A DNA stretch of 64,000 bases. Source: a phage. Shown piece after piece: positions 40,839 through 63,163 of the stretch; the first letter of the stretch is position 1, and each line of letters begins with the position of its first letter. Under the pieces are notes generated by a model. That model had not been told where the DNA came from. It was given only the letters and a program-made list of their open reading frames with translations, and did no database searches. The translations under genes were made by a program, and so were the position numbers. Where the stretch lies: the sequence record PZ386955.1, one strand, 5' to 3'.

Positions 40839-41380
40839 TCAATATCCTCTTCGTAATCATCATCCCAAGAAGATGCGTCGTAACGCTCTTCCTCTTCGAA
40901 ATCCCAATTAATTTCTACTCCAAAATCTAAAAACAATTTAACAATGTTTTCTGTAGAGTAGTATTTATCATAAGCGTCAGCTAGTTCCCAATACTTGTCA
41001 CTCAATTTTTTATATTTAGGATCATTATAGTCATAATCTACTTTATAACCATAATCATACATCTCTTGTTCAGCTTTAAGCATAGCTTCTGGTGTAAGAA
41101 GATTAGGGAACGGACGATTTCTTTCTTTTAACTTAGAAACAATCCAGTTTGCAACATTTGCCACTTCACCATCTTGATTATCACCTAAACAACTTGCATA
41201 ATCTCCATCTTGGTAAGTGCCTAAATCCCCACAGACTTCATGTACAATAGATGAATACGATCCACACGTTTCACAATCTGAAAAAGTGTCTACTGTTGTA
41301 ATATCAATAGATAAAACTGGTAAAGCCATAGCTTCTTTCACACAAGCCTCCTCATATAATAACATATCATCAAAACCCAT
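40826..41380 (-). CDS. acidic Cys-containing hypothetical protein, translationally coupled to sirtuin gene
   Basis: Trimmed from track TTG start to ATG (MGFDDM) after RBS GGAGGA; overlaps sirtuin start by 13 nt; poly-acidic C-terminus. Confidence 0.55.
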   Translation of the reverse strand: MGFDDMLLYEEACVKEAMALPVLSIDITTVDTFSDCETCGSYSSIVHEVCGDLGTYQDGDYASCLGDNQDGEVANVANWIVSKLKERNRPFPNLLTPEAMLKAEQEMYDYGYKVDYDYNDPKYKKLSDKYWELADAYDKYYSTENIVKLFLDFGVEINWDFEEEERYDASSWDDDYEEDIECEE

Positions 41381-41397
41381 ATATCCTCCACACAAAT

Positions 41398-42044: not shown

Positions 42045-42167
42045 TTACCCCCAATGTATATGGGAAATTAACCAAAAGATAAATTCCCAAAAACACCAAC
42101 CAAGAAAAGTTAATGGAATTATAAAAGCTATCAGAGCAGTCTTCCAGCCTTTCCACAATGTTTCCAT
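42045..42167 (-). CDS. small membrane peptide (40 aa)
   Basis: Not in track; ATGA-coupled to dcm stop, RBS GGAGGAA; hydrophobic. Confidence 0.3.
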   Translation of the reverse strand: METLWKGWKTALIAFIIPLTFLGWCFWEFIFWLISHIHWG

Positions 42168-43156
42168 CATTCCTCCATACACTTAAGAATATGTGCAATG
42201 ACAGGTATAGTCCAACCATTACCTAACATCTTATATGCTTGTGTGTTACTACTCACTTTAAAGTAATCATCTGGAACACCTTGTAAGCGGCAACACTCTT
42301 TAACAGTTAACTTTCTATAATGCACGCCTTCACTCAATTTTTCAAAGGCATCCAGATATCTTCCAGGTGGAATGTAAGCTAATAGTACGTCTTTCGGCAC
42401 AGTCGTGAGGCAACGAGTTTTTTCACTGTCCTGAACTTCCAAGCAATGTACCAAACGATCAGTTTTAGATGTACTACGTTTGCCATTTTCATTAATTCTA
42501 CGCCCATATATTGCTGCTGGATAAAAAACCAGTTGTCTGCGACTCTTTTCAAAATACTGTTCTATATTACCACCTTTGGCATAATTTGCGTCTATGCAAT
42601 AAGCCTTATCTCTGTCTACAATACTGTCATCTTCAATGATATCTTGCAACACTTCATTGGTAATATCCCAAGGTTTTATTTCCCAATTGCACCAGTATAA
42701 ACGTTGTCTATTCTGTGCAGTGAAATCTGCGGAGTTAATGAATACGGGATTAACACCTAAGTAACTTGTGATCACATTTTCCCACTCCACCTTCATCTTA
42801 ACGTTTTCAAGCATGAACTTAACATTAGGGTTAAACTTTTTAATATGTTCAAGAATTTCAACATATTCAAAGAACAGTTTAGATCGCGGATCTTGAAAGT
42901 TCAAACCCTTACCAGAAGAAGAGAAGCCTTGGCACGGGCTACCACCTAACAAAAGATCAATTTCTCCCCACGGGATATTCCATTCTCTCCATTTTGTAAC
43001 ATCACCTAATTGAACAATATCTGGAAAATTGGCTTGGCTTTCAGCTATGGCAAATTTGTCCAACTCTGAAGCATAATACTTATCTACTTCAATACCTGCA
43101 CTTTTTAGTGCAAGCATTCCTCCTGACATACCATCAAAAAGACTTAAAACTTTCAT
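42167..43156 (-). CDS. DNA (cytosine-5)-methyltransferase
   Basis: Motif I LFDGMSGG, motif IV GGSPCQGFS, ENV motif MLENVKM. Confidence 0.8.
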   Translation of the reverse strand: MKVLSLFDGMSGGMLALKSAGIEVDKYYASELDKFAIAESQANFPDIVQLGDVTKWREWNIPWGEIDLLLGGSPCQGFSSSGKGLNFQDPRSKLFFEYVEILEHIKKFNPNVKFMLENVKMKVEWENVITSYLGVNPVFINSADFTAQNRQRLYWCNWEIKPWDITNEVLQDIIEDDSIVDRDKAYCIDANYAKGGNIEQYFEKSRRQLVFYPAAIYGRRINENGKRSTSKTDRLVHCLEVQDSEKTRCLTTVPKDVLLAYIPPGRYLDAFEKLSEGVHYRKLTVKECCRLQGVPDDYFKVSSNTQAYKMLGNGWTIPVIAHILKCMEE

Positions 43157-44430: not shown

Positions 44431-44989
44431 TCTCCTCTAAGATAGGCTTAATAAATTCGAAAATTTGTTTTTTACTTTTACCTCGAATATTAAAACAAGG
44501 AACATTAAACTTTTTAGCCAACATCCAAGCTGTTCTTGTACCACCTAAAGGATCTCCATTTTTATCTGTATTTGCACAAGCTAAAAGAAAACAAGATGGT
44601 TTTGGATTCTCAAGATCTCTGCCAAGAACTTGGTGGATATTTCTTTGATGTAATTTTTTAGCACCTTGAGATAATCTGTCCCAAGCTGGATGCAATTCTT
44701 TTGCATATTGCAAGGTTAGAGCATAGTTTACACTATCTGGTCTGTCAAGAACAATAACCTCTCCCTCTATCTCATTACCTTTAAACGAAGGCCAAGGAAT
44801 GTATATTTCTTTCTTTGTATTGTTTCCACTATCATACACCCCGCATTCAAATGCGGAATCTGCACCTTCTGCTTTACCAGATCGTAAAATGAACCATGTA
44901 GATAACCATTTTGCAACAGCTACCATAGTGTCCCATTCTTCGTCTGTAATATCTCTGCTACCAACACCTGTGTAGAATAAATCGCTCAT
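44411..44989 (-). CDS. DprA/Smf-like (SLOG-type Rossmann) protein
   Basis: Trimmed to ATG (MSDLFY) after RBS AGGAGAA; motif GVGSRD...SGKAEGADSAFECG resembles DprA/SLOG nucleotide-binding fold. Confidence 0.5.
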   Translation of the reverse strand: MSDLFYTGVGSRDITDEEWDTMVAVAKWLSTWFILRSGKAEGADSAFECGVYDSGNNTKKEIYIPWPSFKGNEIEGEVIVLDRPDSVNYALTLQYAKELHPAWDRLSQGAKKLHQRNIHQVLGRDLENPKPSCFLLACANTDKNGDPLGGTRTAWMLAKKFNVPCFNIRGKSKKQIFEFIKPILEENGLVQK

Positions 44990-44999
44990 GGTTTTCTCC

Positions 45000-45320
45000 T
45001 TAACAAGTAATATTGGGAATAATACTGGGAGTAACAATTGGAGTAATAGGGTACGTAAACCAAGGGCTTCCAATTTCCCAAGGACTATAAGGTGTACGAG
45101 GATCAAATGGAGGCGTTACTTGAGGCTTTTTCCAAATCTCCGCTAGTTGTTTCTTCCATTTATCCCTTGCTGTATCGTTATCTTCATCCAACTGTTCGTC
45201 ATTATCTTTTATTTCTGATTTTGGAAATAAAAGCTCTTTGACTAACTCAACGTCTTCCGTTTCAATAGTAGTTTCTTTCGTAATATTCCCTACCGTCTCT
45301 TTAATTGTGACTTTATACAT
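45000..45320 (-). CDS. hypothetical protein
   Basis: 106 aa, Pro-rich C-terminus. Confidence 0.5.
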   Translation of the reverse strand: MYKVTIKETVGNITKETTIETEDVELVKELLFPKSEIKDNDEQLDEDNDTARDKWKKQLAEIWKKPQVTPPFDPRTPYSPWEIGSPWFTYPITPIVTPSIIPNITC

Positions 45321-46066
45321 TAGTCCTCCTCTAAAGTAGAATAAAATTGTAACGTATTTGAATCATCAAAATATGCAAAGGTTAAATTACCATTGAAGCA
45401 AGATCCTGTGTCCATATATACCCTATTACTGCTAATTACAGGTTTAGGAACATAAGAATGCCCGTGAAATACATAATCTACTCCTGAAACTCTAGGAAGA
45501 AGAATCCCTTCAAGGGCGCAATCTATCATATCACGATCCCACATTAAAGATTCTGTGAATCGAGATACTTGCTCTTTATTCATATTCAAACAAAATGGCA
45601 AAACTTCTGTCACTGGTAAATGTTCCAAAACTGAAGGATACCCACCGTGAATAAAGCCTAGTTTCATATCACGATAATTGACAACAAGTACAACAGGTAA
45701 ATCTTCTAGCATCAAAGCAAGAGCAGTTGCACCCTCTTCTCCACACTCGTCTAGAACTGTATGGCCTCCGTTCTGAAACCAACATTCGTAATATCGTCTA
45801 TCACCTTCTAGCAACCCTTTAATCATCATATCTTCATGATTTCCACGAATACCATAACGATTTAGCTTTCTGGTGAATTCAACAACACAACGAAAATTCT
45901 GCTTGCCGCGATCTGTAAGATCTCCTAAAGATACAACAACATCTTGATCTCGGATACCTAAAGTATTAACACCTTTCTGGTACAAATCAAAGCAACCATG
46001 TAAATCACCAATAATAAACAAGTCTTGATCATCTTTTACACTAATTTCTTGATATACTAGCATCAA
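45320..46066 (-). CDS. PPP-family Ser/Thr protein phosphatase (calcineurin-like metallophosphoesterase)
   Basis: GDLHGC, GDLTDRG, GNHE metallophosphatase motifs. Confidence 0.8.
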   Translation of the reverse strand: MMLVYQEISVKDDQDLFIIGDLHGCFDLYQKGVNTLGIRDQDVVVSLGDLTDRGKQNFRCVVEFTRKLNRYGIRGNHEDMMIKGLLEGDRRYYECWFQNGGHTVLDECGEEGATALALMLEDLPVVLVVNYRDMKLGFIHGGYPSVLEHLPVTEVLPFCLNMNKEQVSRFTESLMWDRDMIDCALEGILLPRVSGVDYVFHGHSYVPKPVISSNRVYMDTGSCFNGNLTFAYFDDSNTLQFYSTLEED

Positions 46067-46389
46067 CTCTCCTCAAAATCCATAAGTATAAAGATATTAA
46101 CTTTACCTTCTATATTATGTTCTACAACAAGATCTGCAAATTCTTTGTAGGCTTTTTCTTCTATTTGTTCAATGTGAGACGCTACATCTTTGTATATAGC
46201 GTCACCATCTACTTTAACAAGGAGGAATAGAGATCTTACTTCAATCTCTTTATTTTTACGGGGTAGAAAATCGACGGCTTCTTGTATACGCCAGCCGAGA
46301 TACCCTGGAGTCCTTTGAATATCCTCCAAATGACTTTCTAAGATTTCCCTTCCTTTGTCTATTAAAGCCTGTTCTGTCGTTATTTTCAT
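46063..46389 (-). CDS. hypothetical protein
   Basis: 108 aa ORF. Confidence 0.55.
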   Translation of the reverse strand: MKITTEQALIDKGREILESHLEDIQRTPGYLGWRIQEAVDFLPRKNKEIEVRSLFLLVKVDGDAIYKDVASHIEQIEEKAYKEFADLVVEHNIEGKVNIFILMDFEES

Positions 46390-46399
46390 CCCCTTCTCC

Positions 46400-46972
46400 T
46401 TAATGTGTTAATGAAACTGCGTAACTAAACACAGGTTCAGATATTACATCGGCTACAGTAATAAAAACGTCTTCGTCTTGAGTTGTTTCTACACGACATA
46501 CAGTTACACCATTCACCACGAATTCAACGCAATGTGGAATATCTTCACAAACGAAGGTAGTGTAAGTAACACCCAAAGCATCATACAAAGATTTAACAGT
46601 GTTTGCAAGTGCCGCAGTTTCTTCTTTTTCTGAGACAATGAATGCTGTAACAACAAGATTGTTTGCATAGTTTAGACTGTCCTCTATAGCCAATGATTTA
46701 CAAGGTAGTAATGCAAAATATTTACCTGGTTTAATCAGACCTGCTTCCCATTGATTCAAAATTGCTTGGGATGGTTTAGTAATATAAAACAGATTTTCAC
46801 TTGGGTTATCAATATTACTTCTGGCGATACAACGTGAAGGATTATTAATATCAAACACATGATCAAAATCTACACAAACTGGTAAACTGAAAGGTGTGAA
46901 TTTTTTACCTAATAATCCTACTGCTGACAATATGTTTGCTGTGCTTATCTTCCCGTTAAAAGCTAAACGCAT
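46400..46972 (-). CDS. hypothetical protein
   Basis: 190 aa ORF. Confidence 0.55.
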   Translation of the reverse strand: MRLAFNGKISTANILSAVGLLGKKFTPFSLPVCVDFDHVFDINNPSRCIARSNIDNPSENLFYITKPSQAILNQWEAGLIKPGKYFALLPCKSLAIEDSLNYANNLVVTAFIVSEKEETAALANTVKSLYDALGVTYTTFVCEDIPHCVEFVVNGVTVCRVETTQDEDVFITVADVISEPVFSYAVSLTH

Positions 46973-46983
46973 ATTTAACTCCT

Positions 46984-47187
46984 TTAACTAGCAACCGTAA
47001 CTTCCGAACTTTCTTCTTTCGTACTGTCTACGATATGCCTGGTGGCAATATACGAGACTTGCCAGTTACCATCTGGTGTAGTCTCAATAAGTACCCTATC
47101 TACTTCGAGAAAATGCAAAAATTCAACCATCGCTCGCTTCGATAGGAATTGTTTTTTAACAGTCTCCTCAAAAGATTGAACTGCCAT
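46984..47187 (-). CDS. hypothetical protein
   Basis: 67 aa ORF. Confidence 0.5.
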   Translation of the reverse strand: MAVQSFEETVKKQFLSKRAMVEFLHFLEVDRVLIETTPDGNWQVSYIATRHIVDSTKEESSEVTVAS

Positions 47188-47196
47188 GTTTCCTCC

Positions 47197-47859
47197 TTAT
47201 TTAATATTCAATTTTGCACAAAGACGTTGTACCGCTTTGGCATCGAACAAACTCCCACGAATAGTTCTCTTTCCTGATTCATTCAGATGCTTTGCAATCG
47301 TCATATATGGCGTTTTACAAGCTCTGTATGCAACTAAAGAATCTTTTAAAGAAAGCGCAAACTCTTTTGAGCGTTTTGCTTCTTCCGTTTTCGTATAATC
47401 TGTTCTTTTGTATTTAGGGTTTGCTGCACCAAGAAGCGTTCCCTTCGCTTTTGCTACTTTAAGGCTCTTCTTAACACGATCAGATATTGCACGAGCCTCT
47501 TCTTCTGCCAGAACTGCTAAAATATTTATTATCATATTTTCAGCGGAGGGCATAGTTGCTATTCGTACATTAATCATCTCTAACAAGGTTGCAACAGAAG
47601 CTGTGTTACGTCCAAGACGGTCAACCTTAGCAACAACAAGTGTAGCACCTGTTTCTTTGCAAAGATTAACAGCTTTCACAAGCTCTCTACGTTGCTTCCA
47701 ATCGCCTTTACCCGAATAAAACTCTGCAAAGCTACCTACAATAGTATAATTTTCTTGTGAATCCAGGAAGCGTTGGATATCTGCTTCCTGTGATTCTATA
47801 CCATACTGGTTGCCTTGTTGTTTCTTCTTAGAAAGTCGATGATATAGTACAAACTTCAT
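47197..47859 (-). CDS. serine recombinase (resolvase/invertase family)
   Basis: N-terminal YHRLSKKKQQ..GIESQ catalytic-Ser region, VVAKVDRLGRN, C-terminal HTH-like tail. Confidence 0.7.
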   Translation of the reverse strand: MKFVLYHRLSKKKQQGNQYGIESQEADIQRFLDSQENYTIVGSFAEFYSGKGDWKQRRELVKAVNLCKETGATLVVAKVDRLGRNTASVATLLEMINVRIATMPSAENMIINILAVLAEEEARAISDRVKKSLKVAKAKGTLLGAANPKYKRTDYTKTEEAKRSKEFALSLKDSLVAYRACKTPYMTIAKHLNESGKRTIRGSLFDAKAVQRLCAKLNIK

Positions 47860-48120: not shown

Positions 48121-48371
48121 TATTCATCCCAATCGCCGTTACGAGCACTTTCAAGAACCTTGACAACTTCTGCATACTCTACAGCTAAACCAGCACATAC
48201 TTCAGCTTGTTTTGCAATTGCTTGTTTAAAGAACATAGCGATTGCAACACTCTGTGTTGTATGAATGTTATCTGCTTTAGTTGATACATGAAGATCAAAA
48301 TCTTCTTCATCAAAGGTGAGTTCCATAGTAACAATAAATTTCTCGGTCATAAAAATGCTCCTCTTAAACAA
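48120..48371 (-). CDS. hypothetical protein
   Basis: 83 aa ORF. Confidence 0.5.
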   Translation of the reverse strand: MFKRSIFMTEKFIVTMELTFDEEDFDLHVSTKADNIHTTQSVAIAMFFKQAIAKQAEVCAGLAVEYAEVVKVLESARNGDWDE

Positions 48372-48873
48372 AATAGAAAGGTTGAGTTAAACCCAGCCTG
48401 TTTTTTGGGTCGTAGACGTACCAAGCATATGCTGTCTTATCAGTACCACCTGCAACAAAAGATGGTCGTTCAGAAAGAACAATCAAATTTGTTGGTGGAT
48501 TCTGTTTATGGAATTCCCTTCGTTTAATAGACTCTAGGAACCCAAGACGCAACAAGTATATGCAAACGTCTGCTTCTTTTAAGCTCTTTTGCAAGAACTC
48601 AAGTGCAAGTTTGAATGGGGGATTTGTGATTATAATATCCGGCTTAGTATGCCATTCGTGGTTAAAATAATCTTTCCCTTCTTCTAACTCACAATATTCT
48701 GATCCTTCTGGAAAATGTTGATAAATTGCAGCAGCAGCGCCTTTACACGGTTCTGCAAAAATAAAACCTTCTTCTTTAAGGTTATTAAAATCTATTACAC
48801 TAAATAATGCATTTATACATTTTTGTGGAGTAGGATAGTAATCAGTTGGTGGACGATCATACTTATTTACCAC
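48364..48873 (-). CDS. DNA N6-adenine methyltransferase (phage Dam-like)
   Basis: NPPF catalytic motif (IIITNPPFKLA), small single-domain size. Confidence 0.65.
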   Translation of the reverse strand: MVNKYDRPPTDYYPTPQKCINALFSVIDFNNLKEEGFIFAEPCKGAAAAIYQHFPEGSEYCELEEGKDYFNHEWHTKPDIIITNPPFKLALEFLQKSLKEADVCIYLLRLGFLESIKRREFHKQNPPTNLIVLSERPSFVAGGTDKTAYAWYVYDPKNRLGLTQPFYFV

Positions 48874-51280: not shown

Positions 51281-51303
51281 AAAAGGGGCTTTCGCCCCTT
51301 TGT
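51281..51303 (-). terminator. rho-independent terminator after lysozyme gene
   Basis: Minus strand GGGGCGAAAGCCCC followed by TTTTAT. Confidence 0.6.
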
Positions 51304-51964: not shown

Positions 51965-52231
51965 TTACTCCGCAATCTGAGCCATGAATTCACGTAGTTC
52001 GGAAAAACCTCCTACGTGGGTTAGATGTTCACCATCTTCCACAAAAATTTGAGGAAAGGTACGTGGCAGAACACCTGTTTTCTCTAAAACCAGATTCTGA
52101 ATCTGATCTAAAGAATAGTCTTCATCTAAGGTAAGATATTTAAAATCCTGTTCACGCTGTTCCAGTAGAATCTTAGCGTTAGTGCAGAAAGGACAATTTG
52201 GTTTACCGTAGATAATAAAATTCATTTTCAC
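51965..52231 (-). CDS. glutaredoxin (NrdC/NrdH-like)
   Basis: CPFC active site in YGKPNCPFCTNAK, ~88 aa. Confidence 0.8.
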   Translation of the reverse strand: MKMNFIIYGKPNCPFCTNAKILLEQREQDFKYLTLDEDYSLDQIQNLVLEKTGVLPRTFPQIFVEDGEHLTHVGGFSELREFMAQIAE

Positions 52232-53058
52232 TCCTTGTTTAAAAGTATAGTTAAAGTTTTTACAATACCGCTATCAACACTTCGCGGATTTAAAGTAGGA
52301 TCTGTTTTTAAATAAGATGTTGCTGGTCTGACTGCTTTGGAATTATAGGTTGAAGCAGATACAGGATTAACTGTAACAGACAAATCTATAACAAGAAATA
52401 TCTTTCGTGCAAAATCGTACCAAGAAATATAATCTGCACCTGCATAGTGTACAATTTTACTATTTACACCATCTTTTACAAGTTTAAAAATTGTTTCTGC
52501 AAGATCAGGTGCATAAGTAGGACACGACAAATGATCACATACTACATTAAATTCTTTTTGACCACCATTGTAGCGTTCCAACATAGTTTTCAAAAAGTTA
52601 TGTCCAAATTCACTATAAACAGAAGCTGTTCTGATAATAAGTGCTGTAGGACAAACTGCTTGTACTAAAGTTTCACCTAATTGTTTACTGTAACCGTAGG
52701 TGTTCAAGGGGTTTGTTTTACTCTCTTCTGTGCCAGCAACATGTCCATCAAAAACATAGTCTGTTGAAATATGTACAAACTGTATCAGTAAATCATTACA
52801 TGCTTTGGCAATGTTTGTTGCACCGTATGCATTAACATTTATACAGGTGTTAACATCTTCTTCAGCTTTATCTACTGCCGTGTAAGCCGCACAATTCACA
52901 ACAACATCAGGCACATGCTGTACAAGACTATTCATAACATCTTTAAAGTTGGTAATGTCTACATCACTTGCTTCAATCAAAATAACATCTTCGGGCGCAA
53001 CTTTTGCCAAAGACTGTCCTAATTGACCTTTTGAACCAAAGACTAAAAATTTTGTCAA
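52228..53058 (-). CDS. rmlD: dTDP-4-dehydrorhamnose reductase
   Basis: N-terminal Rossmann LVFGSKGQLGQSL, RmlD-like length and pathway context. Confidence 0.75.
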   Translation of the reverse strand: MTKFLVFGSKGQLGQSLAKVAPEDVILIEASDVDITNFKDVMNSLVQHVPDVVVNCAAYTAVDKAEEDVNTCINVNAYGATNIAKACNDLLIQFVHISTDYVFDGHVAGTEESKTNPLNTYGYSKQLGETLVQAVCPTALIIRTASVYSEFGHNFLKTMLERYNGGQKEFNVVCDHLSCPTYAPDLAETIFKLVKDGVNSKIVHYAGADYISWYDFARKIFLVIDLSVTVNPVSASTYNSKAVRPATSYLKTDPTLNPRSVDSGIVKTLTILLNKE

Positions 53059-53609
53059 AATATGATCTCCTTTAGTGTTTTGGCTTCCTGATCTTTTTGT
53101 GACAAGATAGGTTTAAAATTAATATCATTAAAGATTAAATCAAAACCCCAATCTATATTGATATCTGGATCATTCCACGCAAGACTACACTCTGAAGTCG
53201 GATCGTAATATTCTGTACATTTGTATTCAAAATCAGCAATATCACTAATCACAACAAAGCCATGAGCGAAACCAGGAGGAATCCAAAATTGTGTTTTATT
53301 CTTTTCAGATAAGAGAACACCTACCCATTCTCCAAATGTTGGACTACCAACCCTAATATCTACAGCAACATCATAAACTTCACCACGAACACAACGTACT
53401 AACTTCCCTTGTGGGTTTTTCTTTTGAAAATGAAGCCCACGTAGAACTCCTCGGATAGAACGTGAATGGTTATCTTGGACAAAGTTTTGTTTACCTATGT
53501 ATTGATCATATAAAGCCTGATTAAAACTTTCTAAGAAAAAGCCACGTTCATCTCCGTAAACGTCAGGTTGAATGATCAACAAATCTTCGATTTTTGTTGC
53601 TTGAATCAT
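53055..53609 (-). CDS. rmlC: dTDP-4-dehydrorhamnose 3,5-epimerase
   Basis: DERGFFLESF and RGLHFQ motifs, ~184 aa cupin. Confidence 0.8.
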   Translation of the reverse strand: MIQATKIEDLLIIQPDVYGDERGFFLESFNQALYDQYIGKQNFVQDNHSRSIRGVLRGLHFQKKNPQGKLVRCVRGEVYDVAVDIRVGSPTFGEWVGVLLSEKNKTQFWIPPGFAHGFVVISDIADFEYKCTEYYDPTSECSLAWNDPDINIDWGFDLIFNDINFKPILSQKDQEAKTLKEIIF

Positions 53610-53621
53610 TTAATTCCCCCT

Positions 53622-54491
53622 TTATTTTAATTTAAGTAAATACTTACCGTAGTCTGTTTTACTTAAAACCTCTCCAGAACTTTTTACAGAGTCTAAAGTA
53701 ATCCATTCATTTTTAAAAGCAATCTCTTCCAGGCAAGCAACCTTCATACCTTGTTGCTTTTCTATTGCATGAACAAATTGAGATGCTTCCATAAGACTTT
53801 CATGTGTTCCTGTATCCAGCCAAGTGAAACCTCTTCCTAGCTTACAGACACGTAAAGCCTTTTCTTTCCAGTACATCTCATTTATATCTGTGATCTCTAA
53901 CTCCCCTCTAGCAGAAGGCTTAACGCTTTTAGCTTTCTGTATAACAGAATTATCGTAAAAGTACAAGCCTGTAATTGCATAGTTGCTTTTTGGTGCTTTT
54001 GGTTTTTCTTCAATACTTACCACTGTACCTTCAGAATCAAACTCAACAACACCAAATCTTTCAGGATCATTTACGTGATACCCAAAAATATTAGCTCCAC
54101 CATTCTTTTCAATATGTTCTTTAGCAGAATCTAAAATGCTACCAAAACTCTGACCAAAGAATAAATTATCACCTAGCACAAGTGCTACAGAATCTTCACC
54201 AATAAAGTTCTCACCAATAATAAACGCTTCTGCTAAACCTTTTGGGCTATCCTGTATTGCATACTGTAGGGAAATACCAAAAGAAGAACCGTCACCTAGA
54301 AGATTTACAAAATTAATTTGATCTTCTGGTGTTGTAATTATTAGTATTTCCCTAATTCCAGAAAGCATTAGGACAGAGAGTGGATAATAAATCATAGGTT
54401 TATCGTAAATTGGTAATAGTTGTTTACTAACCCCTTTAGTAACTGGGTAAAGTCTTGTTCCACTACCACCTGCTAAGATAATACCTTTCAT
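53622..54491 (-). CDS. rmlA: glucose-1-phosphate thymidylyltransferase
   Basis: [36 protein letters not shown] matches RmlA N-terminus. Confidence 0.9.
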
Positions 54492-54499
54492 ACTCCTCC

Positions 54500-55489
54500 T
54501 TAAACTTTATTTTCCCACCACTCTTTGTTATCTACATACCAATCAATGGTTGAATAAAGTTTTTCTTCAAATGTGCCTTTAGCTTTCCACCCTAATTCCT
54601 TTTCAATCTTATAAGGATTCACTTCATATCTTAGATCATGCCCAGGCCTATCTGTAACCATCTCAATGAGGCTACAAGCATCTGTTTCAGATGGATATAC
54701 CGCATCCATATAATCACAAATCATATAGATTACATCAATATTAGTTCTAGGGTTTCTGCTCCCAATATTATATGTCTCTCCAGATTTGCCTTTAGTTACT
54801 ACTAGGTGTAATGCTTCTGCGTGATCGTCAACGTATAGCCAGTCTCTTACTTGAAGACCATTACCATAAACAGGGATTGGTTTATTCATTAAGATATTTG
54901 TTATCGTCTTAGGTATTAGTTTTTCTGGATGATGATATGCTCCAAAATTATTTGAACAATTTGTTATAACTGTCGGAATACCATAAGTACGATGCCACGC
55001 TCTTACCAAATGATCGCTTGCAGCTTTAGATGCAGCATATGGACTACTTGGTTTATAAGGATTCTGTTCTGTAAACGGATAATCCCCTTCTTCCAGATCA
55101 CCATACACTTCATCTGTTGAAATATGATGGAACATTTTAAGATTTGATTTATCTCCCATTAAACGAACAGCTTCTAGAAGATTAAATGTCCCAACAATAT
55201 TTGAATTTATAAAAACACTCGGTGATGCTATTGAATTATCTACGTGACTTTCTGCTGCAAGATGCATTATATAATCTGGATTAACATCTGCCACAATCTT
55301 AGCAGTTAACTGAGCATTTGTCAAGTCAACACGACAAAACTTTACATTAGGTGTTTCTGATAAATTTCTAGGGTCTGAAGCGTAACCCCATTTATCTATA
55401 ACGTAAATATCATTCTTAGTGTTTTTAGCCAGGAAACGAACTACCGCACTTCCAATAAAGCCTAAACCACCTGTTACTAAGTATTTCAT
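54500..55489 (-). CDS. rmlB: dTDP-glucose 4,6-dehydratase
   Basis: [12 protein letters not shown] Rossmann, [15 protein letters not shown] catalytic YxxxK signature. Confidence 0.9.
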
Positions 55490-55683
55490 TTAGTCTCCTT
55501 CCAATTATTCCCTTCAGTAAAAATAATACCTTCATAAAACAACCATCTGGAACCTTTTTCAACAGGAACAGGAATCTCTTCTTCAGTAAAGTTATAAACC
55601 TCTCTAGCATCTTCTAAAAGTGATGCAAATGTTTTTGGACTTACTGTTACGCGAGGAGCATTGATCAGTTGATCTAGCATCAT
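55486..55683 (-). CDS. hypothetical protein
   Basis: Trimmed from 55776 to internal ATG after RBS AAGGAGGA, avoiding overlap with upstream gene. Confidence 0.45.
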   Translation of the reverse strand: MMLDQLINAPRVTVSPKTFASLLEDAREVYNFTEEEIPVPVEKGSRWLFYEGIIFTEGNNWKETK

Positions 55684-55696
55684 TCTACTATCCTCC

Positions 55697-56023
55697 TTAC
55701 CAAACGTGTTGAGAAATAATAGTTTCCGTTTCAATGTTATATTTTTCAAGAAGTTGTGCATAGGCTTCTTTTGCATTCTTATTTAGTTGCTCAAGATCTA
55801 CAGCTACACTTCCTTCGCCACCTTCTAAATAAATCCCATATATGCAATAAGATGCATCAGCGTCATAGAAAGGTGAGATACGGCTTAAATCAAGACCTTC
55901 TTGTAAGAACCAATTAAAATCTCCATCAAATTCTTCTTCAATTCTAGGATCTTCTCCTACAGCCTCTTCCCATTTATTAAAAGGTGCACCCTGTAACATA
56001 CGCCATTCAGTGGCAACTCCCAT
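55697..56023 (-). CDS. hypothetical acidic protein
   Basis: 108 aa ORF. Confidence 0.55.
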   Translation of the reverse strand: MGVATEWRMLQGAPFNKWEEAVGEDPRIEEEFDGDFNWFLQEGLDLSRISPFYDADASYCIYGIYLEGGEGSVAVDLEQLNKNAKEAYAQLLEKYNIETETIISQHVW

Positions 56024-56159
56024 TATCTTCCTCCTCTTCTTTTTCTTCCGTGTGAACGAAGCCTAAACCGTTACAATTCCAACACGGAATAAATTGTTCC
56101 ATACTAACAATAAAATTCCCAGTACCACCGCAGATAGGACAAATACTTACATCGTCCAT
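56007..56159 (-). CDS. small Zn-ribbon protein (50 aa)
   Basis: Not in track; RBS GAGGAG; CPICGG...CWNC. Confidence 0.4.
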   Translation of the reverse strand: MDDVSICPICGGTGNFIVSMEQFIPCWNCNGLGFVHTEEKEEEEDNGSCH

Positions 56160-56161
56160 TA

Positions 56162-56368
56162 TTAAAGCTCCTCAATCTTTTCTAACATCTGTTTTAACTC
56201 ATTCTCTGTTAATAGAATTTCTGTGATACCATCATAAGTTTCTACCATCAGAGTAAAACATTTCTCTCCATCTGAACATACAAAAGCACCACCTTCATCT
56301 TCTGTTAAGTCAGAATTAATATCTACATCAACAAAATCAATCATCTTTTTCTCCTTTGATAATTTCAA
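56162..56368 (-). CDS. hypothetical protein
   Basis: 68 aa ORF. Confidence 0.5.
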   Translation of the reverse strand: MKLSKEKKMIDFVDVDINSDLTEDEGGAFVCSDGEKCFTLMVETYDGITEILLTENELKQMLEKIEEL

Positions 56369-56555
56369 ACTTGGCTACACCATTAACTATAATATGACCG
56401 CAAGACATAACTCCTAGCCAATGATCACCATTCTTTTTTAAACGTTTGCCGTAAACATCACAGAAACCATTCTGTAATTCGGAAGCCTCATAAGAGGCTC
56501 CCTTTTCGAAAACGTCTTTGAAGTCAGAAATTAATCCAACACAAAGTAGTTTCAT
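56337..56555 (-). CDS. hypothetical protein
   Basis: 72 aa ORF. Confidence 0.5.
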   Translation of the reverse strand: MKLLCVGLISDFKDVFEKGASYEASELQNGFCDVYGKRLKKNGDHWLGVMSCGHIIVNGVAKFEIIKGEKDD

Positions 56556-57640
56556 TAAAAGTCTAACTCCTCGTCATCACTTACATCTTTATTTGCTGAA
56601 TTTAGTTTGTAAGCTGTAATTTGGATCTCCTGTGCTGCTGCTTGAATTTGATCTGGATTTAACCAAACATCCATCCAAGGCAGTGGACTTTTCTTCGGTG
56701 CACGGAATTTGTGTTTCATTTTCAGTCTGCGATAGATAGGCGCAGCATTGAAGTAAACCCAAAGTTTGAACAGCTCTGCGTTACCACCAACGATAATCCT
56801 TCCTTCACTAAACAGATAGTCACACCAATCTTCCTCTTGTCCAACTACCGTGTCAAGAATTTCTGTCAGAACGTCGATATTATCTTCGTATACTTTTCTC
56901 CAGACAGGATCTTTCAGCAGTGCATCAATAATAGCATAATCCATTTTAACGTGCAATAGTTCATCCAACATAATTTTTTGAATGAGTTTAGCTGCACCTA
57001 CAAACAGTTGCTGCTCTGCTAAGGCAAATGTTGCAGCAAAAGATGATATGAATTGAATGCCTTCCAGACCGATAAGTGCAATCATTCCTTTCAGAATCAG
57101 TAGACGAAGGTTATCATCCTTCTCAATCAGACCTAGAGCATATTTATGCCCTGCCTCTGCCAGATCACTCATTATCTCTTCAACTATACCCATCCTCTGG
57201 AAGATTCTTTCGTTCTCCATAATCTGATCGATAACTTCATTTGGATTAGGGATACACTGACGAATAATTTCAGAATATGTCAAAGCGTGTAAAACTTCCA
57301 TTTCTGATTGCTTCATCATCATTGCACATGCTTCGTTGTTGCTTAAAAATGGTGCAAACAAAGTGATGATTGATTTAGCAAGTGAATCATTTTCCCACTG
57401 GAAAGATAGGTTTTTGATCATAACATCATAGTTGCTTTTAGAACAAGCTACGAAATCTTTTCGTGTCTGATCTAAGTTTACTTCGTTTTCATCCCAGTCT
57501 TGCTGTTTTTGTAGTTTGTACAGACGATGCATTTCTGGGTATGTTACATTAATAGAATCAAAAATACCTAACTGTTCTCCCAAAAACACAGGGTAGAAAC
57601 CTTCTTTGTAAGTGTCGTTGTATAAGTTAATTGCTGCCAT
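56555..57640 (-). CDS. nrdB: ribonucleotide reductase class Ia beta subunit
   Basis: 361 aa; Fe-ligand/tyrosyl-radical region SEMEVLHALTYSEIIR; adjacent to nrdA. Confidence 0.85.
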   Translation of the reverse strand: MAAINLYNDTYKEGFYPVFLGEQLGIFDSINVTYPEMHRLYKLQKQQDWDENEVNLDQTRKDFVACSKSNYDVMIKNLSFQWENDSLAKSIITLFAPFLSNNEACAMMMKQSEMEVLHALTYSEIIRQCIPNPNEVIDQIMENERIFQRMGIVEEIMSDLAEAGHKYALGLIEKDDNLRLLILKGMIALIGLEGIQFISSFAATFALAEQQLFVGAAKLIQKIMLDELLHVKMDYAIIDALLKDPVWRKVYEDNIDVLTEILDTVVGQEEDWCDYLFSEGRIIVGGNAELFKLWVYFNAAPIYRRLKMKHKFRAPKKSPLPWMDVWLNPDQIQAAAQEIQITAYKLNSANKDVSDDEELDF

Positions 57641-57962
57641 TTAAATCCTCCACAATATCGTACATTGCTTTTATTGTATCAATGTGTTCTCTCTCCATAC
57701 CATGCTCTATGTAAGCCTTCTCTAATGCGTCCCATACACTCTTTGTGAGTAGCACAGTAACCTCTCCCTCATACCTTGCCCTGGTTAAAGCATACCAGGT
57801 AGCTATGGGATCATTGGAAGCCCATATTTCAACACTGGAAAATTGAAAACCTGCAATATAATGACAACACCAATCGAATGTAAAATCTTTACTATCTACC
57901 AGTGTATAATTTCCCCAGCGTCTTTGTGGTGTTGCCCCAGGTAATACAACTAATGTAGGCAT
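57627..57962 (-). CDS. hypothetical protein between nrdA and nrdB
   Basis: Trimmed to ATG (MPTLVV) after RBS AAGGAGG. Confidence 0.5.
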   Translation of the reverse strand: MPTLVVLPGATPQRRWGNYTLVDSKDFTFDWCCHYIAGFQFSSVEIWASNDPIATWYALTRARYEGEVTVLLTKSVWDALEKAYIEHGMEREHIDTIKAMYDIVEDLNGSN

Positions 57963-57975
57963 ATTCCTCCTTAAG

Positions 57976-57995
57976 AAAGGGGGACAAAGCCCCCT
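57976..57995 (-). terminator. terminator-like hairpin after nrdA
   Basis: Minus strand GGGGGCTTTGTCCCCC followed by TTTCTT. Confidence 0.5.
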
Positions 57996-58002
57996 AGTTT
58001 CA

Positions 58003-60264
58003 TTACATCTTACAAGCCTCACAACCGGATTCTTCATCCTCTTGAGCGAGTGAGGTTGCCGATTTTGTTCTGCTATTTAGATAGTACAAAGATTTACCAC
58101 CAAGTTTTGCAAACTGAAGAATATATTGCATTTCTGATTTAATGGATAAACGACCACCTTCCATCTTAGAATAGTCAATCCACTTATCACATGATGCACC
58201 TTGATCTAAGAATTTAGTCAACAGTCCATATGCTTCAGCCATATCTTTATCTGGTGTATCCCAAGCCGATTGGTAAATATCTTTTAGTTTATCGTAGTCT
58301 GGCACAATAAACAGAACATTACCCTTTTGGCTTTGTTTATAAACTATAGTATCACGTACAGGATACACAGAGTTAGTCGTATTACTTACAAGACTACTGG
58401 ACTCATTTGGAGCAATAGCTGCTAATACGCTATTTCGGATACCACCTTGTGCAATGATATCTTGTCGTAAACCTTCCCAATCCATTTTAAGTTTAAAATT
58501 GCCAATATCGTCTACAGCTTTAGCGTAGGTGTCAATAGGCAACCATCCTTCAGGCCATTTGGTTTTATGCATCCATTCTGCATTACCTTTCTCTTTTGCC
58601 AAACGAAGAGAAGCTCTTGCTAACCAATAATAATGTCTTTCTGCTAATTCGTGAATTAGTTTTTTGCCGTAAGGATCTGAATAAGTAACAAAATTACTTG
58701 CCAGATAATGTGCAAGGTTTGTAATACCTACGCCGATAGACCTACGTGCTTTAGCAGTGATTTCGTTATGTTTAAACGGATACTGCATTGTTTCAATAAC
58801 ATTATCAATAGTCAGAACGGTATAATATGCAACATCTTCATATTCTTCTGGTGTAACACGACCAGCTACAATAGAAGACAGGAAGCATAATGCCAATTCT
58901 TGATCTTCTGTATTCTCACCTGTGAAAAGATCAGTCATATTGTGAAATGCTTTCGTAGGTAAGAAAATTTCTTGGCACAAGTTTGACTGGTAAATAACAT
59001 CCTTAAACGGAGTATGCTTATTAGCATTATCCGCAAAGAACATATAAATACGTCCTGTCTCTGCTCTTTGTGTAATAATTTCTGCCAGAAGATCTCGTGC
59101 TTTTACAAACTTCTTCTTAATTCGTTTGCGACTAACTTTTTCATATACTTCTTCAAACTCTTCCTCGCTTTTATAAAGCGCCTCATAGAGTTCTGGTGCT
59201 TCGTCATAACTGACTAGCATCCAATCTTTACCTTTTGCTGCACGGCGCAGGAAAGCATTGTTTACTACGATAGAGTAATCAAGTTTATCTACTCGTTTTT
59301 CACTAACAGTAGTTGGGTTTTTCAAACGTACCAGATCTTCAAAATCAGGTTCTAGTATTGTAAACGTTACCGTTGCACTTCCACCACGACTGGCTTGTTT
59401 TGATGCTCCAACACTTGTTTCCATCCATTTCAGATATGGTAAAAGACCACCGTGAACGATACGGTTGTTCTTAACACCTTGTCCTGTAGCACGGGTTTGG
59501 AGGTTAACACCAATACCTGCATTATTCAATGTATATTCATGAGCAAGATAGTTAGCAATTGCTAAAGATTCTGCTGTATCATCTGCTCTAAACAGACAAC
59601 AAGAAGCACTACCTTTAATCTTAGTACGCAAAGTTGTTAAATAAGGCGATGGTAAATTAATCTTAAGATCACTTACGTAGGTATATAGACGTTTAATGTC
59701 TTCTACTCTGCGATCTTTTGGTTGAATTTCCATTACCTTCATTGCTACACCAATGAATAAAAACTGTGGTGATTCAAAAACAACATCATTGATCGCATCT
59801 TTCACAAGATACTTATCAACCATCTGGCGCAGTACGGAATAACCATAAGTTAAGTTTTTATCGTGATTGACAATTTTACCAATCTCAATAATTTCTTCTT
59901 CTGTATAATCCATTTTTCCCCAATAGCCTTTACTTACAGACATATTGTAGAAATCCAGGAGGGAGGGGATATTGTGATATCCCCCATGAGCCTGTTTATA
60001 AATCATACCAAGAAGTAACCGACCTGCCATATCACTATATGCCTGATCTTTCTTATCAATACATGCTGCTATCATAGCTTTATGTAAATCACGAGTAGGC
60101 ACACCGTCGTAACAACGTTTAACAGCTTCGAGTTCAATTTCAGACCAATTTAATTTACCAGCAGCAAACTCTGACCATTTACGAAGTTTTTCTGGATTAA
60201 ATTCTTCTTTCTTGCCGTTTGTTTTTGTTACATAACGGATAGATTTGCTTAGATACTGAGTCAC
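58003..60264 (-). CDS. nrdA: ribonucleotide reductase class Ia alpha subunit
   Basis: 753 aa; ATP-cone N-terminus, catalytic core (PSPYLTTLRT, SNLCQEI) and C-terminal Cys pair GCEACKM. Confidence 0.9.
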   Translation of the reverse strand: MTQYLSKSIRYVTKTNGKKEEFNPEKLRKWSEFAAGKLNWSEIELEAVKRCYDGVPTRDLHKAMIAACIDKKDQAYSDMAGRLLLGMIYKQAHGGYHNIPSLLDFYNMSVSKGYWGKMDYTEEEIIEIGKIVNHDKNLTYGYSVLRQMVDKYLVKDAINDVVFESPQFLFIGVAMKVMEIQPKDRRVEDIKRLYTYVSDLKINLPSPYLTTLRTKIKGSASCCLFRADDTAESLAIANYLAHEYTLNNAGIGVNLQTRATGQGVKNNRIVHGGLLPYLKWMETSVGASKQASRGGSATVTFTILEPDFEDLVRLKNPTTVSEKRVDKLDYSIVVNNAFLRRAAKGKDWMLVSYDEAPELYEALYKSEEEFEEVYEKVSRKRIKKKFVKARDLLAEIITQRAETGRIYMFFADNANKHTPFKDVIYQSNLCQEIFLPTKAFHNMTDLFTGENTEDQELALCFLSSIVAGRVTPEEYEDVAYYTVLTIDNVIETMQYPFKHNEITAKARRSIGVGITNLAHYLASNFVTYSDPYGKKLIHELAERHYYWLARASLRLAKEKGNAEWMHKTKWPEGWLPIDTYAKAVDDIGNFKLKMDWEGLRQDIIAQGGIRNSVLAAIAPNESSSLVSNTTNSVYPVRDTIVYKQSQKGNVLFIVPDYDKLKDIYQSAWDTPDKDMAEAYGLLTKFLDQGASCDKWIDYSKMEGGRLSIKSEMQYILQFAKLGGKSLYYLNSRTKSATSLAQEDEESGCEACKM

Positions 60265-61044: not shown

Positions 61045-62016
61045 TCACCATTTTGTATGGTTAGTCAAAAGTTGACGATGTTGAATCCAACCACAGAAGT
61101 TTCCACTCCACAAACGATGTTTACGATCCATATGTGTAATACCTTCCTCCCAAGAAGAAGGGAACGGAGGCATATTAATACCATCTTTCTGTTGTTTTAA
61201 TCCTGACAGATCCATTTCTTTCATTGGCGTTGCCTGGTGTTCAAACGGAGATGCATGTACTTTTTGTCCAGACAGCAAACGAGAATAGATATCCAATGCT
61301 TTATCTTTAGTATCATTCAATTTACGATAACTTACCTGAGCGCAACAAGAAGCTGAAATAGCTTTTGCTTCCTCTTCTGTCAACATTTTCTCGTTGGAGA
61401 AGGTTTCACCCAAGAAATAACGGATCATACCAGTTTCTGGATCTCGATCACGATTAACGTAAGGTGTATGCCATTCCCCTGGGAAAAGAAGATATGATTC
61501 AGAAGATTCATACAGTTTTTTAATTTCTTTAGCAAGAGCCTCAATAGTAGGATCTGCATCAGCATCTACGCGCAACCACAAGAAGTTTTCTAGCTCTGTA
61601 GTGGTTACTACAGTCTTCATACGTTGGAATGGTTCTAGTAGGCGGTTTGCAACCTGTTTATGATAACCAGCAAGGGCAAACTCTTCTGCAAAACGTGCAG
61701 CACTTAGCGCAGCTAAGTCCCACCATTCTTTTGCAGTGTAACCTGCATCAATCAGGGCATCGTGATCTGTGCCTTTATCTTGCATACCTGGTTGGTTAGC
61801 ACCAAAACGATAAGGACGTGCTGGAGATTGCCGTACCATTTCAATTAGAGTTTTAACAGGAATAGCTCGACTTGATGCGGCATTACGAGAAAACAAACGA
61901 TGCGTCATCAATTCAGAGTGAATGATTCGGGGATATTCAAGTTCAAAGGTAACAATATCCTTACCTTCAGATGTTTGAGAGTGTGCAATAATTTTTGCTG
62001 AAATAGAATTTGTCAT
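61045..62016 (-). CDS. thyX: flavin-dependent thymidylate synthase (ThyX-like)
   Basis: ThyX-type motif THRLFSRNAASSR (RHR-x7-S-x-R with first R replaced by T); 323 aa, longer than usual. Confidence 0.7.
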   Translation of the reverse strand: MTNSISAKIIAHSQTSEGKDIVTFELEYPRIIHSELMTHRLFSRNAASSRAIPVKTLIEMVRQSPARPYRFGANQPGMQDKGTDHDALIDAGYTAKEWWDLAALSAARFAEEFALAGYHKQVANRLLEPFQRMKTVVTTTELENFLWLRVDADADPTIEALAKEIKKLYESSESYLLFPGEWHTPYVNRDRDPETGMIRYFLGETFSNEKMLTEEEAKAISASCCAQVSYRKLNDTKDKALDIYSRLLSGQKVHASPFEHQATPMKEMDLSGLKQQKDGINMPPFPSSWEEGITHMDRKHRLWSGNFCGWIQHRQLLTNHTKW

Positions 62017-62025: not shown

Positions 62026-62616
62026 TTAAGGTAGTAAAATACTTTCAATTTCTTCCCACTGATTATCTAAACCAGTGATAATTACATTAGGAAGTTTCTT
62101 TAACTCTTCCAAGTATGGATCTTCGTAAATAGTGTTGAAATATATTTTCAACGTTTCATCTGGAAATAGGACAAGATTTTCAGCCCTATCGTCAATAGTT
62201 ACGTCGCAAGGTAATAAGTATTTTTCTTTTGTTGCGAAAAAGCCATTACCAGATGTTCTACTAAAGTCCACTTTATCTAAAGATCGTGTTACGTGTCTAT
62301 ATTTAGAACTAAGGTGTCCACCCTTAGTGTGGCTTGCTATAGATATATTAGCTCCATTTGCAATTATACGATGAACAACATCTGTACTATTAGGTACTAC
62401 TCCCATAGTATCATATAGATGTTGGTTATCCCAAAAAGAGTAAGGATCTACACCAAATTGCTTTTTAAAATCGGGAAAATATTTCGTAATATCATAATGC
62501 ACAGTCTTATGTGCCTTATCAAATTTGATATTAGATCTACTTACCGCATTTAACCAATTTAACCATTCTATATCCGCAGGAGCTATTACTAAATCCCAAT
62601 CACATACTAGACGCAT
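62026..62616 (-). CDS. hypothetical protein, possibly HAD-like nucleotidase (weak)
   Basis: Trimmed to ATG (MRLVCDWDLV) after RBS AGGAGA; DxD near N-terminus and TIDDR near C-terminus; assignment tentative. Confidence 0.4.
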   Translation of the reverse strand: MRLVCDWDLVIAPADIEWLNWLNAVSRSNIKFDKAHKTVHYDITKYFPDFKKQFGVDPYSFWDNQHLYDTMGVVPNSTDVVHRIIANGANISIASHTKGGHLSSKYRHVTRSLDKVDFSRTSGNGFFATKEKYLLPCDVTIDDRAENLVLFPDETLKIYFNTIYEDPYLEELKKLPNVIITGLDNQWEEIESILLP

Positions 62617-63163
62617 TATTTCTCCTGTTATAACATTTTCTACACATCGTTTCGTAAATGTCTTCTCCCCCAATAACAATCTGTTCTTTAGAGTCGATAA
62701 GTCTAGCATTGAAAATAGCTTTTCTTCCACATTTACAAATGCTTTTCAATTCCGTAATTGAATCTGCTATGGCTAATAACCGTTCAGAACCTTCAAACAA
62801 TTCTGTAGCAAAATCTGTTTTAAGTCCATAGCAGAATACAGGAATATCGTAATTATCTACCACATCTCCAAGAATGTCAACCATATCTTTAGTTAGGAAT
62901 TGTGATTCATCCACAAATACTGCATCTACTGGATTTTCTTTAAGCTGTGTATAAATTTCCAGCATATCTTCTTTCGTTTTAACTGGTTTTGCTTCCTCTT
63001 TAATACCTATCCTAGAAGCAATAGCACAACCAGATCTGGTATCTAAAGCCGAAGTTAAAAGAAGAACTTTCATATTTCTTTCTTTATAGTTCCAAGCTGT
63101 TTGTAAAAGATGTGTGCTTTTACCACTGTTCATTGGACTATATCGGAAATAAAGTTTAGCCAT
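62600..63163 (-). CDS. tk: thymidine kinase
   Basis: P-loop YSPMNSGKST, VDESQF, CxCG...C Zn-finger; strong by-eye match to T4 Tk. Confidence 0.9.
   Translation of the reverse strand: MAKLYFRYSPMNSGKSTHLLQTAWNYKERNMKVLLLTSALDTRSGCAIASRIGIKEEAKPVKTKEDMLEIYTQLKENPVDAVFVDESQFLTKDMVDILGDVVDNYDIPVFCYGLKTDFATELFEGSERLLAIADSITELKSICKCGRKAIFNARLIDSKEQIVIGGEDIYETMCRKCYNRRNNASSM

Follow-up and report, generated by a model that had tools for sequence, protein, structure and literature searches.

The 64,000-nucleotide stretch of record PZ386955.1 analysed here (the window) comes from a phi92-like phage of Escherichia that belongs to Justusliebigvirus, a genus of the subfamily Stephanstirmvirinae, and carries on its minus strand a cluster of four genes for the synthesis of dTDP-L-rhamnose. 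In this pathway RmlA joins glucose-1-phosphate and dTTP, RmlB carries out the dehydration to dTDP-4-keto-6-deoxy-D-glucose, RmlC epimerises C3 and C5, and RmlD reduces C4 to give dTDP-beta-L-rhamnose. A first-pass annotation of the same DNA had placed contiguous, co-oriented rmlB, rmlA, rmlC and rmlD genes at 52228-55489, and these coordinates proved to be exact:

55489..54500, minus strand: rmlB, dTDP-glucose 4,6-dehydratase (329 amino acids; TIGR01181)
54491..53622, minus strand: rmlA, glucose-1-phosphate thymidylyltransferase (289 amino acids; TIGR01207)
53609..53055, minus strand: rmlC, dTDP-4-dehydrorhamnose 3,5-epimerase (184 amino acids; TIGR01221)
53058..52228, minus strand: rmlD, dTDP-4-dehydrorhamnose reductase (276 amino acids, TTG start; TIGR01214)

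Identity and integrity of the rml genes

Gene identity was tested by comparing the scores of the products with the curated NCBIfam equivalog cut-offs, all of which were exceeded: RmlB scored 444.1 bits against TIGR01181 (cut-off 365.1), RmlA 472.6 bits against TIGR01207 (cut-off 360.65), RmlC 259.8 bits against TIGR01221 (cut-off 155.75) and RmlD 254.2 bits against TIGR01214 (cut-off 224.05). The Pfam E-values of the four proteins, 1e-72 to 1e-82, exclude a chance match. The catalytic motifs are intact as well. RmlB, whose closest PDB structure is 1g1a (E 3.7e-117), has the NAD-binding motif, TDE and YxxxK (YAASK), and RmlA aligns over its full length with its closest structure, 1iim (E 5e-125), and keeps GGSGTRL. 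The RGLHFQ, GKLVRC, Y..T.YY and WND motifs are kept in RmlC, and its alignment to the closest structure, 1dzr (E 6.5e-64), contains all of the catalytic His, Lys, Tyr and Asp residues. RmlD is closest to 1vl0 and 3sc6 (E ~5e-44) and retains GSKGQLG (GxxGxxG), STDYVFDG and YGYSK (YxxxK).

Comparison of the window with EmilieFrey gave ratios of nonsynonymous to synonymous substitution (dN/dS) of 0.09 for rmlB, 0.08 for rmlA, 0 for rmlC and 0.14 for rmlD. In comparisons across genera dS has reached saturation while the Rml proteins are still 55-79% identical. All four genes are under purifying selection and maintained by the phage. With a GC content of 35%, against 37% for the whole window, the cluster is compositionally native to the phage. 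The equivalog scores, the catalytic motifs and the signs of purifying selection bear out the earlier assignment of a complete pathway, and the cluster very probably encodes a functional one.

The genes are closely packed. The start of rmlB, preceded by AAGGAG, overlaps by 4 nucleotides (nt) the stop of a small open reading frame (ORF) upstream; the rmlB-rmlA spacer of 8 nt contains AAGGAGG, the rmlA-rmlC spacer is 12 nt long, and rmlC and rmlD overlap by 4 nt. A Shine-Dalgarno sequence is present before each rml gene, and that of the glutaredoxin gene sits within the final codons of rmlD.

The enzyme families are the same four as in the bacterial rfb/rml operons (Salmonella and Escherichia coli, and RffH/RffG), with conserved catalytic residues. 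Enterobacterial structures are the closest matches of the phage RmlA, RmlB and RmlC; RmlD, in contrast, resembles the Firmicute-type 1vl0 and 3sc6 more than it does Salmonella 1kbz. The gene order, B-A-C-D, differs from the enterobacterial B-D-A-C, and the cluster is borne by a virulent phage and has a GC content that is phage-like, not host-like. Unlike the bacterial operons, it is not part of an O-antigen locus that includes a flippase or polymerase.

The pathway is not new in this genus, for which it has already been annotated and discussed in two papers. At the DNA level the 3.26-kb cluster is 98-99% identical to its counterparts in more than 50 GenBank phage genomes, those of phi92, EmilieFrey, VivaForever and alia included, the best match being VivaForever (99.2%), and vB_Eco_J-01 matches the window at 98.9% identity over 24 kb. 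The clusters of phi92 (gp064-067), EmilieFrey (bas61_0211-0214) and more than 50 other Justusliebigvirus genomes have the same gene order, lengths and flanks as that in the window, which represents a further isolate; the RmlC protein is identical in the window, phi92 and other members. Public records of these relatives already label the genes as dTDP-rhamnose enzymes. The pathway's presence in the region of DNA metabolism was called 'peculiar' by Olsen et al. (2020; PMC7552041), who proposed glycosylation of hydroxymethylated nucleotides, and the pathway was also remarked on by Maffei (2021; PMC8594841), who found phi92-like phages to be 'exceptionally susceptible' to restriction-modification systems all the same. 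We found no experimentally determined role for the rml genes in the literature on phi92-like or Phapecoctavirus phages. Among the database records, MG065639, MG065645, MG065656 and MG065689, named 'Campylobacter phage' with C. jejuni as the host, are 98.4% identical to the window over 24 kb; this host assignment looks doubtful.

Genomic setting and origin of the cluster

The rml genes are flanked, as the first-pass annotation described, by the genes for glutaredoxin (grx) and nrdB, with four to five small ORFs separating nrdB from rmlB. The neighbouring genes are the following:

51965..52231, minus strand: glutaredoxin gene, downstream of rmlD (Pfam Glutaredoxin, E 2.4e-12)
55486..56555, minus strand: four to five small ORFs between nrdB and rmlB (EmilieFrey bas61_0215-0219)
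56555..57640, minus strand: nrdB, class Ia ribonucleotide reductase small subunit (Pfam Ribonuc_red_sm, E 1.9e-33)
58003..60264, minus strand: nrdA, ribonucleotide reductase large subunit (TIGR02506, 482.6 bits, cut-off 341)
61045..62016, minus strand: divergent ThyX-like protein (323 amino acids; Pfam Thy1, E 4.2e-9)
62600..63163, minus strand: tk, thymidine kinase (NF003300, 238.9 bits, cut-off 195)

Phapecoctavirus ESCO5 and Citrobacter phage Tr1 keep the gene order nrdA-nrdB-(small ORFs)-rmlB-rmlA-rmlC-rmlD-grx-(small ORF)-endolysin-phoH. In Vequintavirus FFH2, a member of the sister subfamily, thyX-nrdA-nrdB is followed directly by the glutaredoxin gene, without rml genes or small ORFs at the junction. 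Because nrdB and grx are adjacent in FFH2, the rml genes and the four to five small ORFs are an insertion that split the nrdB-grx pair in a Stephanstirmvirinae ancestor.

Scans for promoters and terminators were uninformative: 35 promoter-like sites were found vs 40.4 expected, and from 57980 to 50400 the minus strand has no terminator-like site. A G+C-rich hairpin followed by a T-run, matched on the plus strand, lies at 51282-51301 between phoH and the endolysin gene, and another, matched on both strands, at 57978-57995 in the overlap of the nrdA end with the start of a 136-amino-acid ORF (57627-58037) that sits upstream of nrdB; the two may mark the transcript boundaries of the nrdB-rml-grx-endolysin stretch. 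Since the rml genes run in the same direction as the nucleotide-metabolism genes, with ORFs that overlap or are tightly spaced, co-expression with the dTTP-making enzymes is probable. Such joint expression is metabolically sensible, yet the location in the nucleotide block, which is explained by a lineage-specific insertion, is no evidence for a role directed at DNA. In Sphingomonas phage PAU (L015 6958-9437), an unrelated jumbo phage, rmlB-rmlC-rmlA lie two genes downstream of a thymidylate synthase gene, which is a second, independent case of rml genes near genes for dTMP synthesis.

Analysis of the distribution of the cluster separated its two halves. All four rml genes are retained in 55 of the 55 close relatives of the window, and of the ~133 Stephanstirmvirinae records marked by NrdB, ~132 have RmlC. 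In Phapecoctavirus ESCO37 and Klebsiella phage KP13-26, rmlC-rmlD stand alone at the equivalent site (for ESCO37, see also PMC10269720). In tblastn searches of the phage collection, RmlC and RmlD gave matches in 106-107 records bearing the name 'Escherichia' and in 8 bearing the name 'Klebsiella'; RmlA matched only 88 'Escherichia' records, with Klebsiella not among the names listed. The pair rmlC-rmlD is the core, present in every relative, and rmlB-rmlA is accessory and absent from some. Enterobacterial hosts all make dTDP-4-keto-6-deoxy-D-glucose, via RffH/RffG, for the enterobacterial common antigen (ECA), whereas RmlC and RmlD are limited to hosts with rhamnose in the O-antigen. On the simplest reading, with the 4-keto intermediate available everywhere from RffH/RffG, rmlC-rmlD is what the phage must supply for dTDP-L-rhamnose in any host. 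In ESCO5 (L004 5119-8397) the GC content is 42-44% for rmlB and rmlA and 36-38% for rmlC and rmlD, whereas all four genes of the window have 35%; this suggests a separate, possibly more recent history of rmlBA in Phapecoctavirus, which would fit its patchy presence there.

As to the neighbouring genes themselves, the true start of the glutaredoxin gene is probably the ATG at 52225, the small ORFs at 55486..56555 have no Pfam matches, and NrdB matches NF006576 with an E-value of 4e-47, a score under that model's cut-off. The earlier placement of thyX and tk beyond nrdA holds for tk, which is above its cut-off, and only in part for thyX, the product of which is ThyX-like but divergent: it scores 33.4 bits against TIGR02170 (equivalog cut-off 87.9), with matched residues 22-168 of 323. 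This protein carries the motif THRLFSRNAASSR, which resembles the ThyX signature, RHR..S....S.R, but reads THR..S....S.R. Between the ThyX-like gene and tk, an ORF at 62026-62730 (minus strand) has a weak, sub-cut-off match to NT5C deoxyribonucleotidase (E 1e-4); as listed it overlaps tk by ~130 nt, the EmilieFrey annotation gives 196 amino acids, and its true start is probably further downstream. Elsewhere in the window, three proteins of ~190 amino acids (1131-1703, 40826-41395 and 46400-46972, all minus strand) are publicly annotated as aminoacyl- or histidyl-tRNA-synthetase-like. None of the three has a Pfam match, and we do not claim that they are paralogs, as they share no mutual BLASTP similarity.

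Glycosyltransferases outside the window

The first-pass annotation recognised no glycosyltransferase in the window and advised a search of the rest of the genome. For the window the statement is correct: four glycosyltransferase candidates gave no tblastn match in it better than E 0.14, the PHROG-based annotation of the equivalent part of VivaForever contains no glycosyltransferase, and ten further unannotated window ORFs have no glycosyltransferase domain. The lack is an effect of the window boundary, as the genome does have such genes. The search located four adjacent glycosyltransferase genes at 44552-47728 of EmilieFrey, ~16 kb ahead of window position 1, where they adjoin the primase/helicase and DNA polymerase genes:

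EmilieFrey 44552-47728: two paralogous glycosyltransferases of 314 and 337 amino acids (PHROG 7162; weak GT4-type Pfam matches)
EmilieFrey 44552-47728: glycosyltransferase of 228 amino acids (PHROG 2456)
EmilieFrey 44552-47728: glycosyltransferase-family protein of 187 amino acids (PHROG 14179)

AlphaFold models were examined for close homologs of the 228- and 314-amino-acid proteins. The former has a GT-A fold (homolog model, pLDDT 88) with invariant FIFDDD (DxD) and YG-ED motifs, and the latter a GT4-like GT-B fold (homolog model, pLDDT 94.7). Fold searches of PDB and BFVD support both folds without resolving the acceptor, and a PDB sequence search with three of the four glycosyltransferases returned chance matches only. 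All four are small proteins of the GT-A/GT-B families, and no membrane-type (GT-C) family was matched.

The genes beside the glycosyltransferases in EmilieFrey (L001 48477-50000, L002 418-9090) encode a SleB-type cell-wall hydrolase, the Ter-like proteins vWA-TerF, TelA and TerC, a macrodomain protein, a phosphoribosyltransferase and a HAD-family protein. Distant metagenomic relatives (L010, L011) keep the arrangement, and TerD is found in relatives.

The GT-A enzyme occurs in ~127 records, with divergent copies in Tr1 and FKP3, a set essentially the same as that of RmlC; neither the RmlC nor the GT-A search gave a match identified as Vequintavirus. Gene contexts in more distant phages point in the same direction. 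In the metagenomic distant relative L012 the order is a homolog of the 187-amino-acid protein (46% identity), a 356-amino-acid short-chain dehydrogenase/reductase (SDR), a GT-A homolog, a GT4-like homolog and primase/helicase, this SDR being a divergent NDP-hexose 4,6-dehydratase (TIGR01181, 171 bits; STDE and YAASK motifs). The phage contig L020 has a GT4-like homolog in a cluster that also encodes an SDR, a radical-SAM enzyme and a DegT aminotransferase. These contexts tie the glycosyltransferase family to a dedicated supply of deoxy-sugar nucleotides, and because of this link the rml pathway probably feeds the phage's own four-gene glycosyltransferase cluster.

The same distribution bears on an explanation by metabolic diversion, in which RmlC and RmlD would drain dTDP-4-keto-6-deoxyglucose from ECA or O-antigen synthesis, or the pathway would buffer the dTTP and glucose-1-phosphate pools. 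The conserved core, rmlC-rmlD, does work precisely at the ECA branch-point intermediate. However, most members of the lineage, the window included, keep rmlA and rmlB under purifying selection, so that the flux would be raised and not merely diverted. Such a sink would also be limited by feedback on RmlA, which is inhibited by dTDP-rhamnose. Since the four glycosyltransferases occur in essentially the same phage records as rmlC, pool diversion is less economical than supply of a donor, and we consider it very unlikely.

Candidate acceptors and the role of the pathway

Phage DNA was one of the acceptors named in the first-pass annotation, and transfer of rhamnose to a modified base, in the manner of the T4 glucosyl-hydroxymethylcytosine, corresponds to the proposal already in print (Olsen et al., 2020; PMC7552041). 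The rml genes do lie among nucleotide-metabolism genes and the glycosyltransferases beside those for primase and DNA polymerase, and the phage encodes a C5-cytosine methyltransferase in addition to the divergent ThyX-like protein. Moreover, the GT-A enzyme has a sub-threshold match to TAGT (PF20691, E 6.8e-5) and a weak match to the PHROG of the T-even hydroxymethylcytosine (HMC) glucosyltransferases. However, the TAGT match reaches 23.3 bits against a gathering score of 27.5 and spans 60 residues, both matches are confined to the generic nucleotide-binding and DxD region of the enzyme, and the T4 alpha- and beta-glucosyltransferases are absent from the top 50 hits of the fold search. No DNA-type glycosyltransferase (GT63, GT72, or TAGT above the gathering score) was found. 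Neither a TET/JBP dioxygenase nor a ThyA-type hydroxymethylase was detected among ~30 larger proteins, the small ORFs having been only partly scanned, and no other base-modifying enzyme was seen among the ~30 larger genome and window proteins searched. The location in the nucleotide block is accounted for by the insertion described above, and the reported susceptibility of phi92-like phages to restriction-modification despite their rml machinery (Maffei, 2021) also speaks against modified DNA. Thus, DNA is disfavoured as the least likely of the acceptors suggested earlier, and a general modification of this kind is quite improbable. A variant in which rhamnose on phage DNA is sparse or sequence-specific, with sites set by, for example, the phage C5-cytosine methyltransferase or arising via the ThyX-like enzyme, and too thin to stop the type I-III restriction enzymes tested, is less probable still.

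The methyltransferase in question is Dcm-like and is encoded at 42167-43156 of the window (minus strand; Pfam E 1.7e-43 for the EmilieFrey ortholog). According to the annotation of the EmilieFrey and VivaForever orthologs, an N6-adenine methyltransferase is encoded at 48364-48873 (minus strand). The phage appears to be equipped to methylate DNA, though it belongs to a group reported to be restriction-sensitive.

Among the other acceptors, a protein, virion proteins foremost, is a tentative first choice. The evidence is convergent but weak. The top structural match of the GT4-like model is SdgB, and Gtf3 and GtfC were also hit; all three are glycosyltransferases of serine-rich adhesins. The two bacterial homologs examined are encoded next to surface proteins, one beside a pertactin-type autotransporter and the other beside an intimin/invasin-type protein. 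An unrelated 36-kb phage (L018) has a homologous pair of GT-A and GT4-like enzymes (27% identity for the GT-A, E 8e-12) directly upstream of, and on the same strand as, the terminase, portal, protease and capsid genes. Homologs of the GT-A enzyme (25-27% identity) are also found at the right-end glycosyltransferase locus of 66 records of cluster-F mycobacteriophages. For two phages of this cluster, Che8 and Rita, glycans on capsid proteins are reported (Freeman et al., 2023, as cited in other papers). Bobi gp102, encoded at the syntenic locus, is a homolog of the GT-A enzyme, and the two have the GT2 plus Glyco_transf_7C architecture in common; a comparison that tested the GT4-like enzyme as part of a fusion in Bobi gp102 was negative.

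We lean slightly towards the view that the rml cluster provides a serotype-independent supply of rhamnose donor for the phage's own glycosyltransferases, which would act on a target other than DNA, virion or other proteins being the most plausible. Several observations count against this view. The rml and glycosyltransferase clusters are ~70 kb apart, and their co-occurrence within one phage lineage is a single evolutionary event, not many independent ones. GT4 enzymes usually use UDP- or GDP-alpha-D-sugars. For the GT4-like model, MshA, BshA, PglA, TarM and disaccharide synthases score much like SdgB; the fold matches are generic for GT-A and GT-B, with TM-scores of 0.4-0.6, and include enzymes with lipid-linked, teichoic-acid and small-molecule acceptors. 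The GT-A enzyme has no BLASTP similarity to Che8 gp108-110. Finally, a scan of the virion proteins revealed no obvious Ser/Thr-rich acceptor tails, which are the kind known from mycobacteriophages; the C-terminus of the sheath protein is Ser/Asn-rich.

Remodelling of the host envelope is a serious rival to a protein acceptor, although on balance we think it rather unlikely. Here the phage glycosyltransferases would rhamnosylate the lipopolysaccharide (LPS) core, ECA, the NGR glycan, the capsule or the O-unit of the infected cell and so block superinfection or keep the progeny from being trapped on debris. Phi92-like phages bind surface glycans through many enzymatic fibres, with NGR and the LPS core as receptors; folds of the GT4 and GT2 types are typical of enzymes that assemble cell-wall glycans, and the fold matches include PglA, TarM, TarP and RmlT. 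The 4-keto intermediate is shared with ECA synthesis, a textbook pathway, and genes for the cell-wall hydrolase and the Ter-like membrane proteins adjoin the glycosyltransferase cluster. However, no Gtr-type or other membrane glycosyltransferase and no flippase was detected among the proteins scanned, and a seroconversion set of the GtrABC/Oac type (flippase, bactoprenol glycosyltransferase, GT-C) is missing both from these proteins and from two independent genome annotations. A virulent phage would have little time to replace the surface glycan already present, and the structural-gene context in L018 and the adhesin contexts favour protein acceptors over an envelope glycan.

The matches of the GT4-like model to trehalose synthase, sucrose-phosphate synthase, GlgM, MshA and BshA, together with the label 'putative disaccharide synthase' that the EmilieFrey annotators gave to both paralogs, are consistent with yet another product: a small molecule or other non-protein compound such as a rhamnose disaccharide, a glycolipid or modified RNA. 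The enzymes are not accompanied by genes that would support this, for example one for an exporter or for lipid handling, and the contexts beside adhesin and structural genes favour macromolecular acceptors; we regard this possibility, like metabolic diversion, as very slight.

Under the preferred reading, donor supply for a non-DNA target, the rml cluster would have entered the nrdB-glutaredoxin junction in an ancestor of the Stephanstirmvirinae and would be co-expressed with the enzymes making dTTP. It would secure the rhamnose donor in any host, independently of the O-antigen type. The only indispensable pair would be rmlC-rmlD, with the 4-keto intermediate provided by the host RffH/RffG, and rmlB-rmlA would serve to boost the flux. 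The users would be the products of the four-gene cluster, i.e. the two GT4-like paralogs with a GT-B fold, the GT-A enzyme with its DxD motif and the small glycosyltransferase-family protein. Their acceptor would most likely be other than DNA, with protein as the weakly supported lead candidate, plausibly a virion fibre or the capsid.

Such a system would have parallels in other viruses. Chloroviruses and mimiviruses encode both 6-deoxyhexose nucleotide-sugar synthesis and cytoplasmic glycosyltransferases, among them rhamnosyltransferases such as A064R of PBCV-1, that decorate the capsid protein with rhamnose-containing glycans (PMC7019647). The likeness lies in the fact that donor synthesis and glycosyltransferases are both virus-encoded; however, those are giant viruses of eukaryotes with GDP- or UDP-linked donors, whereas the window belongs to a tailed phage with a dTDP-linked donor. 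With the Che8-type mycobacteriophages, the phi92-like phages share phage-encoded GT-A glycosyltransferases outside the structural module, but the mycobacteriophages have no donor-synthesis genes at the right-end locus. The T-even phages are similar in that a large virulent myovirus has sugar-transfer genes among its genes for replication and nucleotide metabolism. They differ in having a hydroxymethylase and a UDP-glucose donor, whereas for the phi92-like phages, which would use dTDP-rhamnose and are restriction-sensitive, we found neither a hydroxymethylase nor a GT63/GT72-type enzyme.

Selection in this virulent coliphage appears to maintain both a donor pathway of four enzymes and four glycosyltransferases, which makes the identity of the acceptor a question worth pursuing. 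If the virion is the target, the phage would, to our knowledge, be the first with a Gram-negative host to have a self-contained system for protein glycosylation. As phi92-like phages are components of cocktails, glycosylation of their virions would have consequences for the immune recognition of therapeutic phages.

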